From: an uncultured bacterium
Lineage (GTDB): Bacteria; Patescibacteriota; Minisyncoccia; UBA6257; 2-01-FULL-56-20
Assembly (NCBI GenBank): GCA_963807165.1
Contig: CAWDZM010000001.1
Location: forward strand, 577,471 to 641,470
Direction of reading: 5' to 3'
DNA length: 64,000 bases
The position numbers and the translations under genes are program-made. Positions 54,817-58,627 of the stretch are shown piece after piece. The first letter of the stretch is position 1. Each line of letters opens with the position of its first letter. The notes beneath the pieces were generated by a model. The model saw only the letters and a program-made list of their open reading frames with translations. It made no database searches and was not told the DNA's origin.

Positions 54817-55110
54817 ATGTACGACAAAAAATTGAAAGAGTATAAGGCAAAACAGTCTGATCTTTTGCAGCAAATGAACGATCACAGCCTAGCCGATCAA
54901 GAATATCATTTGACCGCAAGCAGGCTTCTAAGCATCTGTAAACGCGCTTTTGAGATATTTGAAAGTTCTGAACCCGCCGAAAAACGCGTTTTCTTGAATT
55001 TCATACTTCAGAACTCGACATTAAACGCTAGGAAGCCAGTGTTTATGCTGAAACCCGTGTTCCAAGGCATCGTAAAAGCGCACGATGACCACAAATGTAT
55101 TTCCCGTTAG
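54817..55110 (+). CDS. hypothetical protein, possibly a truncated remnant; its stop codon lies inside repeat copy 1
   Basis: No SD; preceded by an overlapping 51-aa TM ORF in another frame; the 3' end ...KCISR* is encoded by the repeat. Confidence 0.25.
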   Translation: MYDKKLKEYKAKQSDLLQQMNDHSLADQEYHLTASRLLSICKRAFEIFESSEPAEKRVFLNFILQNSTLNARKPVFMLKPVFQGIVKAHDDHKCISR

Positions 55111-55190
55111 GGGTATCCTCAATAAATCCCATAAAATCTATCTAAAAATCGCCGGGTGCCTCAGTATACGACGTTAGAACCTGCTTGAGG
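55098..55190 (+). repeat. copy 1 of the ~80-90-bp tRNA-His-trailer-derived repeat
   Basis: TATTTCCCGTTAGGGGTATCCTC...ATCTATCTAAAAATCGCCGGGTGCCTCAG...; about 85% identical to copy 2. Confidence 0.75.
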
Positions 55191-55234
55191 GGATAGGGAT
55201 GATCAAGAAATCTCCTACGCCATCCCACATATTC

Positions 55235-56395
55235 CTACTTCACTTCATGCTCATCTGGCGTAAGCTTCACGAGGCCAAATTTTGCAGAAGCAGCCTTATG
55301 ATTAAATCCATCAACAGCTTCCGTAAAATTATGTCCCGATCCGTAAATCAAGGGAATTACTCGTTGTGTCGATTTGTCTTGATTTATGATACCAAGAGCC
55401 GCGTCTTCTCTGAGACGATGTCGATATTCTGGCTTATATTCTTTATCGGGAATAGAAGCTATTCTTTCCTTAAACGAGAAAGGTGCATCCGTTTTGTCGC
55501 GCGCCGCCTGATCCTCTGCGGGCAGTAGATTTATTTTACCTTCGGCATATAACTTTTCCGCGGCTCCCCATGCGTATATATTATCCCCGCGGATGAGTTC
55601 GTCTTCTCCTAATTTTTCAGCTTGGAGTTTAATGTTCTCGATCAGCTGAGGTATATTGTCTTTCGCGTGTTTTTCAAATGTCTTTTGGTATTGTTCGTCT
55701 GCATGGCCTGTTTTTTGAAAATTTTGGTATTCCCCTTTTATTTTAAGGTATTCTCTTTCAAGCTCGCATTTGTCCGAATAAAGAGTTTGGGCAACTATCC
55801 CTTCGCCAAGAACATCTCTCATCCCAGGTCCGTCATCGTCCGATGAGGAATTCGCCATTTCTAGGCTAGAGGCTAACACGTCATTTTGGAATTTTGCCCG
55901 ATTTTCTGTTACATGTGTTTTCACCTCATCAAGATCCCCCCTTTTTTCTTCCGGCGTTTGTCCTTCAACGTAGACCGTATCGGTTACACCTTTTTCCTTG
56001 AGATATAATAGGAGCTTTTCTATATTTTTTTGTGATGTGATAACTCGCTTTAATTCTGTCGGGGAAGTAGTTTCGATTAGCCTTCCAGGCAAATGAGTTT
56101 GTCCAATATGTAATATGGTCTTCTCTCCGCCGGGAACTTGTTGTTCAATCTGAAATTTCATTGCCAAATTCTCAAGAGGAAGTCCCTCGTGTTTTAACAC
56201 TTCCATCGTAGCCTCAGTGACTTGTTTATCGTGTTCTACGCTTCGCTCTATTCCCATTCCCGCACCAAAAATAGCTATCGCTAAAGCCATCACTCGCGCA
56301 GCTTTTGATTTGTAGACCGATTCAAAACGGCTCTTTTGAGATGTTTGTGGTTCGCTCTCGGCAGATGCCGTGGGGTCGGATTCAAATCTATTCAT
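55235..56395 (-). CDS. hypothetical protein, possibly TraB/GumN-family; cargo of repeat-bounded islet 1
   Basis: N-terminal TM; ILHIGQTHL and LIYGSGHNF resemble the paired GT.H / G.GH motifs of the TraB/GumN family. This is weak, from recall only. Confidence 0.3.
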   Translation of the reverse strand: MNRFESDPTASAESEPQTSQKSRFESVYKSKAARVMALAIAIFGAGMGIERSVEHDKQVTEATMEVLKHEGLPLENLAMKFQIEQQVPGGEKTILHIGQTHLPGRLIETTSPTELKRVITSQKNIEKLLLYLKEKGVTDTVYVEGQTPEEKRGDLDEVKTHVTENRAKFQNDVLASSLEMANSSSDDDGPGMRDVLGEGIVAQTLYSDKCELEREYLKIKGEYQNFQKTGHADEQYQKTFEKHAKDNIPQLIENIKLQAEKLGEDELIRGDNIYAWGAAEKLYAEGKINLLPAEDQAARDKTDAPFSFKERIASIPDKEYKPEYRHRLREDAALGIINQDKSTQRVIPLIYGSGHNFTEAVDGFNHKAASAKFGLVKLTPDEHEVK

Positions 56396-56459
56396 ATGTG
56401 CATTATATCTGCGTTGCTTAGAAATTGTCTATGCTCAAAATTTCTTCACGCACTACAGG

Positions 56460-56554
56460 TTCTATTTCCCGTTAGGGGTATCTTCTGTAGGTCCTATAAT
56501 ATCTATCTAAAAATCGCCGGGTGCCTTAGCATCACGATGTCAGAACCTGTTTGG
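56460..56554 (+). repeat. copy 2 of the tRNA-His-trailer-derived repeat
   Basis: TTCTATTTCCCGTTAGGGGTATCTTCTGTAGG...ATCTATCTAAAAATCGCCGGGTGCCTTAGC.... Confidence 0.75.
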
Positions 56555-56769
56555 CGCGAAGATAAAAAAGCGGCCCAGATCGCTTAGTGCAATCTGGGCC
56601 CTTAGGTGTTGAAGGAATCGTCTTAGTCCACTAGAATCTCCAGAAAGCGCAATCGCTTCCTGCGAAGGGCGTACTTGATGGCATTGCCACGCCGGTCGAC
56701 AGTAATGTCCGCCAGCGTGCTTTCCCTGACTTGATTTTCAAACCTTATGAATTAATGTAAGCTGAAGCC

Positions 56770-57735
56770 ATGGGAAAAAGATTCGAGCAGCCATACGGCG
56801 AGGAAGAAGCCGCTATTGAGGCGGAGAGAATAAAGGATCTGGTTGGAAAATCAGGAACGAACAATGATTATTCCATGGCTCACGAGCTCATCGAAAGCGA
56901 GCGACAGAAAGAGCGAACGGAATTATTTGAAAAAAAGACGTTGGCAGTATTTGATACCTATCGCAAAATTCTTGAAAGCCTTGATTCAAATGAAATTAAG
57001 GACATCAGCCTCGCCTCGATAGGGTGGGAGCATCTTGGACAATATAGACAGCGCGAAAAGAAAAAGGATGGATCGAATAGCGATTTTTGGATGCGCTCGA
57101 TAATCGGAACCTCCGAGAGATTTGAAACCGATGAATTGGGAAATTCCCATTTTCTTTCCCCGGAAGAAAAAGATGGATATATAAGATTTGATTATCGCAG
57201 TTCCAGCGATGGAGGTGATGATCTTTACGAGGAACAGCCAGGGAAATGGATTACCCATGAGGGATTTCGTCATGAATCTAAAGAATATCTTCGAAACGAT
57301 TTAAGTCCAAAAGTTCGGCAGGAAAGAATATTCCATCTCTACGATCGCTTAACAAGCCTCGATACAATCGGCGTTTTTAATTATCATAACGAAGAAAGTG
57401 TTATAGATATTACCTCCCCGGAGATCACGAAATTTATTACGGATTATAGCGATGTTCTTAAAAAAATTGAAGGAGTTAAAGATCGACAGATAGGGCATGA
57501 TAGGCAGATGAAGCTGATCGATAATCTTGAACACAGGAGAAAACAGCTCCATGATGAAGCTGCCGAGGAATTACAGAGGGAAATGGAAAAGGATGGCGTT
57601 TTGATCGGGATAGAAAACGCTCGCCATTTATTAGCTCTTGTTTTTGAGATGAAGAAAAATCTACTCGAGGGCAATGAATTTGATATTTCATATACAAGCG
57701 AAGAGGACACGGGAGGAGCTTCAGAAAAAAATTAA
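56770..57735 (+). CDS. hypothetical protein (321 aa); cargo of islet 2
   Basis: Acidic, coiled-coil-rich; no recognisable motif. Confidence 0.45.
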   Translation: MGKRFEQPYGEEEAAIEAERIKDLVGKSGTNNDYSMAHELIESERQKERTELFEKKTLAVFDTYRKILESLDSNEIKDISLASIGWEHLGQYRQREKKKDGSNSDFWMRSIIGTSERFETDELGNSHFLSPEEKDGYIRFDYRSSSDGGDDLYEEQPGKWITHEGFRHESKEYLRNDLSPKVRQERIFHLYDRLTSLDTIGVFNYHNEESVIDITSPEITKFITDYSDVLKKIEGVKDRQIGHDRQMKLIDNLEHRRKQLHDEAAEELQREMEKDGVLIGIENARHLLALVFEMKKNLLEGNEFDISYTSEEDTGGASEKN

Positions 57736-57800
57736 GGAAACATTCGGCTTTGAATCCGAAGTAAAATTATATATATTGCCAGGTGGAATGCACGAACTAG

Positions 57801-57950
57801 ATGCAGATTCATTATAGCGAGAGCGACGCAGAAGAAATTACCTTTCAAAATACTCGTTACTCTCTAATCGTGGATATTCCCGAAGGTAATCTTGTTACGC
57901 ACAGAGAAATAGCAGAATTTATATCCTCTTATTTTGAAGGATTGAAATAA
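57801..57950 (+). CDS. small ORF (49 aa), hypothetical
   Basis: MQIHYSESDAEEITFQNTRYSLIVDIPEGNLVTHREIAEFISSYFEGLK; weak RBS; ends 3 nt before repeat copy 3. Confidence 0.2.
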   Translation: MQIHYSESDAEEITFQNTRYSLIVDIPEGNLVTHREIAEFISSYFEGLK

Positions 57951-57953
57951 AGG

Positions 57954-58020
57954 TTCTATTTCCCGTTAGGGGTACCTTCTGCACGCCCTATTAAACCTAT
58001 CGAAAAATCGCCGGGTGCCT
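57954..58020 (+). repeat. copy 3 of the repeat, the native tRNA-His 3' trailer, overlapping the tRNA 3' end
   Basis: TTCTATTTCCCGTTAGGGGTACCTTCTGCACG...ATCGAAAAATCGCCGGGTGCCT, where GGTGCCT is the last 7 nt of tRNA-His on the other strand. Confidence 0.75.
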
Positions 58021-58085
58021 AACGGGAATCGGACCCGTATTGCTACTGCCACAGAGTAGAGCTTTACCATTAAGCTATAGGCACC
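58014..58085 (-). tRNA. tRNA-His(GTG) with an encoded G-1
   Basis: G-GTGCCTA-TA-GCTT-AATGGTA-AAGC-T-CTACT-CTGTGGC-AGTAG-CAAT-ACGGG-TCCGATT-CCCGT-TAGGCAC-C. Confidence 0.8.
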
Positions 58086-58090
58086 ATCAT

Positions 58091-58627
58091 CTACTGATCT
58101 GCTATTTCTATATTATGAACGTGTTTCAGGAAATGGCAATTGTGGCATAACCACATCAGATTTTCGATGTTGTTATGCCTTCGGTTCTCATCAATATGAT
58201 GGACAAGGAGTACTCGAAAATCGTCAGTTCCGCAGTTACTGCATACCGCCGGGATGTCGCTTCGTATCATGATATTTCGATACGCATTTTCGCCATGTCG
58301 CCAGCCCGGATGCTGTTCTCCGATAATCACGTTCTTGTTCTTCCATATCGCGAGGCAGGATTTATCACAGAAGAACGTTTGGCTCTTTGAATGTTTAAAG
58401 TGCTTCGGAGTGCGATAGACCAACTTGCCGCACGCTGCGCATTTTACTTCGATCCCATTTTTCTGTCCTTTAAACTGACATATTCTTGAACAGAATTTCC
58501 CCCAGCCCATTTTTAAATGGCGGGGTTTTGCGTAAAACGATCGCGAGCAAATTTGGCAATTTACATACGGCATTGCGCATATTTTATCGCGCTCATGTTC
58601 AAATGTAAACCCTTCGTTTTGATACAA
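58091..58627 (-). CDS. HNH endonuclease with N-terminal zinc-finger Cys pairs
   Basis: HHIDENRRHNNIENLMWLCHNCH is an HNH motif; several C..C pairs; immediately upstream of tRNA-His. Confidence 0.7.
   Translation of the reverse strand: MYQNEGFTFEHERDKICAMPYVNCQICSRSFYAKPRHLKMGWGKFCSRICQFKGQKNGIEVKCAACGKLVYRTPKHFKHSKSQTFFCDKSCLAIWKNKNVIIGEQHPGWRHGENAYRNIMIRSDIPAVCSNCGTDDFRVLLVHHIDENRRHNNIENLMWLCHNCHFLKHVHNIEIADQ

Follow-up and report, generated by a model that had tools for sequence, protein, structure and literature searches.

Repeats and gene cassettes beside tRNA-His

The window analyzed here is the whole 64-kb (64,000-nucleotide) stretch at positions 577,471 to 641,470 of contig CAWDZM010000001.1 (assembly GCA_963807165.1), which derives from an uncultured bacterium of the Patescibacteriota. 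Our subject is one segment of it, in which the transfer RNA gene for histidine (tRNA-His) is followed by three direct copies of a repeat that enclose two short, gene-bearing islets. The tRNA-His gene (anticodon GTG) occupies 58013-58084 on the minus strand (ARAGORN; Rfam tRNA model, 63.4 bits), with its mature 3' end, C73, at 58014 and G-1 encoded at 58085. An Rfam search of 53000-60000 returned this tRNA only. G+C content is 38-45% across ~54600-58800, compared with 50-60% on either side.

Repeat copies were mapped to 55089-55161, 56454-56526, and 57948-58020; over 73 nucleotides (nt) they share 79-88% identity, and their starts are 1365 and 1494 nt apart. As tRNA-His is on the minus strand, the repeat represents the end of the tRNA plus its 3' trailer, and the islets are downstream of the tRNA. 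Specifically, it comprises the final 8 nt of tRNA-His (AGGCACCC) and ~61 nt of trailer, with copy 3 being the native 3' flank of the gene. Copies 1 and 2 retain GGGTGCCT(C/T)AG, and each copy opens with an inverted 11-nt match to the T-arm/acceptor segment of tRNA-His (TTCCCGTTAGG). Repeat length is 61-73 nt, though copies 1 and 2 run ~30-40 nt further on the tRNA side (to ~55196 and ~56563). Two invariant 18-mers, TATTTCCCGTTAGGGGTA and AAAAATCGCCGGGTGCCT, are each present at the three repeat copies only within the window, against a chance expectation of 0.01-0.11.

Read in the direction of the tRNA, the order is tRNA-His, copy 3, islet 2 (321-aa and 49-aa open reading frames, ORFs), copy 2, islet 1 (386-aa ORF), copy 1, and a convergent 97-aa ORF. 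The three copies thereby bound two cassettes of 1494 and 1365 nt that are mutually unrelated in sequence. The 321-aa gene is at 56770-57735 (plus strand) and the 386-aa gene at 55235-56395 (minus strand). Neither product matches Pfam, PADLOC, or PHROG, and the TraB/GumN-like function that had been suggested for the 386-aa protein is unsupported. The 97-aa ORF (54817-55110, plus strand) takes its TAG stop codon from repeat copy 1. On the other side of the tRNA, a free-standing HNH endonuclease gene (58091-58627, minus strand) lies between the 5' side of tRNA-His and the SHMT gene. The layout of repeats, ORFs, and HNH gene agrees with that proposed in the first-pass annotation, which had been made from the sequence alone; the alignments confirmed the three direct copies, the relation of copy 3 to the tRNA, the parts of the tRNA kept in the other copies, and the shared stop codon.

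Modular cassette arrays in related genomes

Equivalent arrays with different cargo were found in related genomes, as the first-pass annotation had proposed to look for. A scan with the repeat pattern recovered 14 metagenome contigs, one metagenome-assembled genome (MAG) of the Parcubacteria, and one 1.7-kb contig binned as Geobacter. There were only two matches in 185,579 species-representative genomes. In every matched locus, the repeat sits within a co-oriented array. Within the sequence covered, namely the 64-kb window and the retrieved loci rather than whole genomes, this is not the distribution of a generic dispersed repeat of the REP or MITE type, nor of the high-copy intergenic repeat that had been named as the observation that would overturn the proposal: all three copies in the 64 kb are inside the array. 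A JGI contig of a related genome (locus L001) provides the clearest counterpart. Its tRNA-His gene is followed by five repeat copies bounding four cassettes of other cargo; the exact 386-aa protein is encoded on this contig too, in this different setting. Arrays likewise begin at tRNA-His in the window and in loci L016, L021, and L027.

Overall, 67 sites were identified in 21 non-redundant loci of related Paceibacteria contigs, and sites are co-oriented within every locus. Between them, these sites delimit 46 cassettes (median length 1078 nt, range 30-5616), which mostly carry a single ORF on either strand and differ in cargo. The constant element of every cassette is a left module of ~40 nt that ends in GGCACCC like the 3' end of tRNA-His. 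Its consensus is CCCCTCAAACAGGTTCTRACRTCGTRKACTRAGGCA (type a), with a variant (type b) reading AATCCTGGTTCTAACGTCCTCCACGATTCCA; CCC then follows. The sequence after CCC varies. Profile searches, performed on the pattern-matched loci and on loci fetched through the neighboring SHMT gene, distinguished several right-module types: T1 (GGCGATTTTTAGATAGATTTTAT, ~15 variable nt, TACCCCTAACGGGAAATAGAACC), T2 (YACCCTAACAGGAATYAGAACCTG), T3 (GGCRATGTTYTCC…GGCTAATTAGTTCTAAC), and T4, a TTGACA-17-TATAAT promoter directed into the cassette. Other right-hand sequences are the 3' end of a recombinase gene (CAATTG…) or unrelated sequence. T1 corresponds to the repeat first noticed in the window and is the commonest type among loci that were mostly found by searching for it. 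That repeat was taken at first as the mark of a cassette; it does belong to the array, but it is only one of several interchangeable right modules, and the universal mark is the left module. A scan of viral contigs with the left module gave no match.

In terms of these modules, the window can be described as follows. Cassette 1 (islet 2; 56519-58012, minus strand; 1494 nt core to core) comprises T1 copy 3 (57952-58012, minus strand; defined by repeat alignment and profile searches), located directly after the tRNA, the 49-aa and 321-aa ORFs (both on the plus strand), a terminator, and left module 2 with its core. This left module (56522-56563, minus strand; …CAAACAGGTTCTGACATCGTGATGCTAAGGCA; nhmmer E=2.8e-13) is followed by the CCC core at 56519-56521. 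Cassette 2 (islet 1; 55154-56518, minus strand; 1365 nt core to core) starts with T1 copy 2 (56458-56518, minus strand), which equals copy B of L001 including its variable center, and continues through a promoter-like site and the 386-aa gene to left module 1 (55157-55196, minus strand; …CCCCTCAAGCAGGTTCTAACGTCGTATACTGAGGCA; nhmmer E=3e-16) with the CCC core at 55154-55156. T1 copy 1 (55098-55153, minus strand) then follows, its distal end fused to the 3' end of the 97-aa ORF.

T1 itself consists of two conserved blocks separated by a variable center of fixed length. It does not appear to be a structured RNA or an attC-like hairpin: RNAalifold analysis of 25 T1 copies yielded only a trivial 3-bp stem and no covariation. 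No sigma-70 promoter or terminator was flagged in T1 on either strand.

Some individual loci merit separate description. In L013 (Ga0187851_10019868), the first and last 123 nt of the 4720-nt sequence (1-4720) are identical, and four cassettes and four sites are present with no recombinase; the identical ends indicate either a 4597-nt circle or a tandem unit. In L027 (3175-3265), two tandem left modules are only 30 nt apart, which is consistent with an empty cassette position left by cassette loss. Loci L033 and L019 share contig DAIDJL010000002.1 (at ~261 kb and ~230 kb, respectively), where left-module/T1 sites are found, co-oriented, ~30 kb downstream of tRNA-His; the island on this contig may exceed 30 kb. 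The contig binned as "uncultured Geobacter sp." (L020, CAIYDQ010000007.1, 1680 nt) contains two array sites and is probably a mis-binned Patescibacteria fragment.

Cassette boundaries

The 386-aa cassette is shared between the window and L001 (9878-11242) with 100.000% identity over 1365 nt, core to core. For the same pair of genomes, the SHMT, folD, and tRNA region is only 78-88% identical, with core genes at ~83%. The exact 386-aa protein is encoded on seven other contigs, in a different array context. Both ends of the identity block can be placed precisely. Upstream, the left modules of the two genomes belong to unrelated types (a versus b), and the identical sequence begins at A|CCCGGCG. 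Downstream, it runs through the left module and CCC and stops 14 nt later. Both ends thus fall inside a single 17-nt stretch, CCCGGCGATTTTTAGAT, which begins at the tRNA discriminator/first-CCA position (C73 = 58014).

The occurrence of both exchanges in one short segment is the pattern of site-specific recombination, given that homologous recombination would scatter boundaries along the 60-110-nt repeats. On the sequence evidence, the point of exchange coincides with the extreme 3' end of the tRNA (GGCA|CCC) and is narrowed to 17 nt. The original proposal of serial site-specific insertion into the tRNA-His trailer therefore holds in its essentials, with att-like duplications, arrays of different cargo, and a fully identical cassette, except that the insertion point is not in the trailer.

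A large serine recombinase remnant and its family

The 97-aa ORF at the far end of the array is the 3' remnant of a large serine recombinase (LSR) gene. The remnant spans 54805-55110 (plus strand), represents the last ~97 codons, and is convergent with the tRNA. Direct searches with the ORF against Pfam, NCBIfam, and PHROG gave no match, and tblastn against phages was also empty; the link to LSRs came only from searching a profile of its family against all representative proteins. Its close relatives are all ORFs of 90-166 aa that begin MYDKKLKEYK. Conservation extends to …AHxTHKW; beyond it the tails of the family differ, starting precisely at the point where translation would run into the core (TGG GGT GCC) or into an antisense tRNA T-arm. 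The family profile gave 3045 matches, including proteins of 416-509 aa that align at their extreme C-terminus. These longer proteins contain Resolvase, Recombinase, and Zn_ribbon_recom domains, which identifies them as LSRs. A tblastn comparison of the remnant with P0045 gave 56% identity (E=2e-26). The first-pass annotation had reported no integrase; this is correct insofar as the window has no intact recombinase, though a degraded one is present.

Members of this LSR family have C-terminal tails such as …WLPGWDSNPRP, which are the antisense of a tRNA T-arm. The 3' end of the gene consequently overlaps a tRNA-3'-like attachment site. Within locus L033, which belongs to the Parcubacteria MAG (SHMT 92% identical), an intact LSR of 532 aa (8160-9758) ends in R-G-A-stop within the tRNA-His 3' end; this protein and P0060, a member of the family, can be aligned over their whole length (31% identity, E=2e-82). 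Family LSRs also adjoin the tRNA-Pro 3' end and lie near tRNA-Arg in L028/L029 (L029 13113-14585 and 14930-16276). In L034, a pseudogenized member (10001-11330) adjoins tRNA-Asn; genes for an N6/N4 methylase and a SWI2/SNF2 helicase belong to the same element. It appears that LSRs of this family generally target tRNA 3' ends.

The remnants follow a common pattern. Truncation is at one codon in all five (window, L021, L024, L025, L026): the break, …ITxE|MYDKK, coincides with a GGGTATTAC pseudo-core. In L025, a longer LSR pseudogene is retained. In L021, the remnant (10059-10381) directly follows a left module and core, an arrangement that, judged by its layout, would be the expected appearance of the attP of such an element. 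The ratio of non-synonymous to synonymous substitution rates (dN/dS) among the five remnants is 0.06-0.19. The remnant may have kept a function, as a small protein that was domesticated, or functional genes that had already diverged may have been truncated repeatedly at the internal pseudo-core.

Arm geometry of the sites

The spacing of a short motif distinguishes the tRNA end from the cassette end. The sequence GGTYCNGA, which forms part of the tRNA T-loop and T-stem, recurs in the left module. In all of the tRNA-His genes examined, 20 nt separate it from the A of GGCA|CCC. The distance is 25 nt in 40 of 42 distinct left modules (six of which were assigned on inspection, the script having placed the core at an earlier ACCC); one of the remaining two has 24 nt and the other, left module 2 of the window, 26 nt. 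Left module 1 of the window conforms to the 25-nt rule. In serine-integrase attB sites, the motif bound by the zinc-ribbon domain is 5 bp nearer the center than in attP sites, and the two types of site are ~40 bp and ~50 bp long, respectively (Rutherford et al., PMC3783163). The 20- versus 25-nt spacing observed here matches this 5-bp shift. On this basis, the end of the window's tRNA-His gene (58016-58035, minus strand; GGTCCGATTCCCGTTAGGCA), which comprises the T-loop, T-stem, and acceptor 3' strand, can be regarded as a B-type half-site and the two left modules as P-type arms.

Complete sites have corresponding dimensions. A left module joined to a T2 arm forms a 50-bp site from GGTTC to GAACC, an imperfect palindrome with perfect terminal inverted repeats of 13 bp. 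The tRNA-His gene of L032 and its flank form a site of 39 bp, the ends of which are perfect inverted repeats of 11 bp (GGTTCAATTCC/GGAATTGAACC). Both sites have GGC[A]CCC at their center, to which the cassette boundaries point independently. Dyad symmetry is present in these two combinations and absent with T1, T3, and T4 right arms. The distal block of T1 is an inverted P'-type half-site ~45 nt away from the crossover. Identity between the cassette repeat and the tRNA is limited to 7-8 nt, together with a diverged T-arm mimic that is longer by 5 nt.

Interpretation and proposed mechanism

Taken together, we consider it probable that this region is a short LSR-type array, in which mobile gene cassettes are docked at the tRNA-His 3' end. 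Each cassette consists, in the tRNA direction, of a variable right module, a cargo gene that often has a promoter and terminator to itself, and the conserved left module, which mimics the T-arm/acceptor of tRNA-His and closes in GGCA|CCC. In the model proposed here, cassettes would enter and leave by conservative site-specific recombination, and the array may grow through such events. The exact crossover dinucleotide is predicted to be in or beside the CCC that follows GGCA, i.e. at the discriminator/first-CCA position, so that the tRNA would never be damaged. The acting enzyme would most likely be an LSR whose gene overlaps its own attachment site at the 3' end, with the tRNA half-site serving as an attB-type arm and the cassette left module as an attP-type arm. 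Since the window retains just a 97-codon remnant, its array is probably static, barring supply of an enzyme in trans.

Several observations weigh against this interpretation. No intact recombinase is encoded in the 64-kb window, and a motif screen for tyrosine and serine recombinases in all ORFs of the window and loci found none. No intact member of the remnant's own clade was found among 5.8 billion proteins; with the longer L025 pseudogene as query, only fragments and ~50%-identical relatives were recovered. The L033 enzyme, which is intact and located at tRNA-His, is no more than distantly related (31% identity to P0060). The right arms are heterogeneous, and T1 fails to mirror the left arm at the LSR half-site position: its proximal block is where a right half-site would be expected and is unlike the left arm. 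In addition, the frequency of T1 is inflated by the T1-based locus search. Canonical LSRs recombine attP with attB only, and rows of left-module-core-T1 junctions are unexplained by this textbook reaction. Finally, the evidence for cassette mobility consists of metagenome assemblies, and the window's own arrangement was not matched in an independent contig, exact-protein look-ups of its SHMT and 321-aa protein having given no record.

A broader proposal, which we advance tentatively and regard as somewhat doubtful, is that the system is a serine-recombinase counterpart of the integron. The tRNA 3' end would be a permanent dock at which self-expressed, single-gene cassettes are captured, stacked, and exchanged among Paceibacteria, each needing only a P-type half-site and core at one end. 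The C-terminal recombinase fragment, invariably cut at one codon and with a dN/dS ratio indicating purifying selection, might be kept as a domesticated factor, and multi-cassette circles such as the possible one of L013 (4.6 kb) might act as transfer intermediates.

Cargo expression and neighboring genes

The cassettes contain their own expression signals. A promoter-like, near-consensus TAGACA-18-TATAAT sequence (56402-56431, minus strand) precedes the 386-aa gene, and a strong intrinsic terminator (56572-56600, minus strand), with a 12-bp stem and T-run, is situated just before left module 2. In relatives, T-rich hairpin tails that resemble this terminator precede many left modules. Given these promoters and terminators in the window, and the T4-type promoters in relatives, the cassettes look like self-contained expression units.

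The HNH gene has a narrower distribution. Apart from the window itself, only the closest relative, L027, was found to have a homologue (9319-9840; 77-79% amino acid identity); L001, L021, and L028-L033 lack it. Such a restricted occurrence looks like an independent, lineage-specific insertion.

Two further features of the window were noted. A possible degenerate fourth core, AATAATCGCGTTGGTGAATTAC, upstream of the recombinase remnant (54787-54806, plus strand) can be compared by local alignment with AAAAATCGCTGGGTGCCTTAC in L021; the alignment scores 28 (shuffled sequences: mean 17.8, maximum 30), which is not significant alone, and the feature is tentative only. Elsewhere, a tRNA-Ile gene with anticodon TAT is encoded at 48348-48420 (plus strand). 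Such tRNAs are uncommon in bacteria, in which AUA is usually read by a lysidine-modified CAU tRNA.

Alternative explanations

The alternative that best survives, which we nevertheless judge unlikely, is that the array was built by site-specific recombination through some other recombinase acting in trans (a tyrosine integrase, a Xer-type enzyme, or an unknown one), with the LSR remnants being decayed passengers of the same hotspot. The lack of an intact LSR in the window or from the remnant's clade would be accommodated, as would right arms unlike LSR half-sites; moreover, tRNA 3' ends are classical tyrosine-integrase targets (Islander paper, PMC4383910). However, there is no Phage_integrase-family gene in the precomputed Pfam lists of any fetched locus. 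The 20- versus 25-nt arms and the 39-40- versus 50-bp sites are specific LSR signatures, and LSR gene ends meet the core to the nucleotide at four different tRNAs.

It is distinctly unlikely that the repeats are instead portable homology or regulatory elements (a tRNA trailer/terminator with promoter), with cassettes swapped by homologous recombination after DNA uptake and without a dedicated recombinase. Conserved flanks of 60-110 nt could support such exchange, the cassettes bear their own promoters and terminators, and the ORF list of the window includes putative uptake- or pilus-type genes typical of the group. The boundaries of the shared cassette argue otherwise: both lie in the same 17-nt core segment rather than along 60-110 nt of homology. 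The left modules at one junction are unrelated (type a versus type b), leaving homology on that side of only ~20 nt before the cassette-specific center of T1. Nor does homologous recombination need strict co-orientation, a constant 25-nt arm, or palindromic 50-bp sites.

An integron, or a cluster of attC sites lacking an integron integrase (CALIN), is very improbable, as array layout is the one defining feature that agrees. Its appeal is that ~1-kb, mostly single-gene cassettes are found between co-oriented repeats of 60-115 nt, and that GTTAGG/CCTAAC-like boxes in the repeat resemble the core sites of attC, which folds as a single strand for IntI. Against this, the 25 aligned T1 sequences have neither a conserved hairpin nor covariation, the order of the boxes is wrong, with the R'-like one preceding the R''-like one, the cassette boundary is at the site center and not the R' box, genes run in either direction from promoters of their own, and neither IntI nor a tyrosine recombinase was found in any locus by the motif screen or in the Pfam lists. 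Hardly credible are the explanations that the cassettes are tied to the neighboring HNH homing endonuclease, an early suggestion prompted by its gene adjoining the tRNA, or that the repeats arose by chance or local duplication, considering that arrays without HNH are found in L001, L021, L016, and others, that the repeat is far above chance expectation, and that the cassettes are mutually unrelated.

Relation to known systems and implications

The features described here resemble those of LSR attP/attB systems such as Listeria A118/LI, Bxb1, and phiC31. These have the same Resolvase, Recombinase, and Zn_ribbon_recom architecture, short attB-like (~40 bp) and attP-like (~50 bp) sites, and a distal motif shifted by 5 bp between site types. 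Agreement is partial in two respects: imperfect dyad symmetry is seen here in the left-module/T2 sites and the L032 tRNA site but not with T1, T3, and T4 arms, and the recombinase gene that adjoins the site is intact at tRNA-His in L033 and a 97-codon remnant in the window. Unlike in those systems, the target here is the extreme 3' end of a tRNA, the mobile units are mostly ~1-kb cassettes without a recombinase that are stacked in arrays, the right half-sites are heterogeneous with junction types outside the attP x attB-only rule, and the last codons of the recombinase gene run through the crossover.

With integrons (IntI, attI, and attC), the arrays share a fixed chromosomal dock, co-oriented sites with small, mostly single-gene cassettes that have no recombinase of their own, a recognition element at one end of each cassette, and cassettes common to diverged genomes. 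They differ in lacking IntI and hairpin attC sites, in using a tRNA gene as the dock, and in that genes point either way and bring promoters and terminators of their own; a serine recombinase, rather than a tyrosine recombinase, is likely to be the enzyme.

There are also parallels with the tycheposon islands of Prochlorococcus and with the tandem accretion of elements, including cis-mobilizable elements (CIMEs), at tRNAs: insertion is repeated at one tRNA with older units pushed outwards (bioRxiv 10.1101/2020.12.28.424599). Tycheposon islands likewise contain partial-tRNA repeats, scattered fragmented integrases, and some units without an integrase, and a minority of tycheposons use LSRs (bioRxiv 10.1101/2020.12.28.424599). 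By comparison, the present units are far smaller (median 1.1 kb) and occur in large numbers, most of them having no gene for mobility or replication. Their repeat is a spacing-shifted mimic with 7-8 nt of identity instead of a true tRNA fragment, and the host is a member of the Patescibacteria. As in tandem accretion and other integrase-less att-flanked elements, the units are bounded by att-like sites, have no recombinase of their own, and are stacked at one tRNA. In contrast to a classical tRNA genomic island, there is no tyrosine integrase, and the 3' segment of the tRNA is not truly duplicated in the repeat. No LSR-type cassette array in the Candidate Phyla Radiation (CPR)/Patescibacteria was found in the literature searched, which is not proof of absence.

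If the proposed interpretation is correct, these arrays would be a second, mechanistically independent solution to the problem of cassette capture that integrons solve. The sites are of possible use in genome engineering, as they combine a natural attB at a tRNA end, spacing-shifted attP arms, an LSR family, and a highly conserved target. Patescibacteria have tiny genomes and few recognized routes of gene exchange. A dock that accumulates and swaps ~1-kb accessory genes would explain strain-level variability in this group. With a cargo of mostly uncharacterized proteins, the arrays would also provide a route to the genes under current selection in these organisms.

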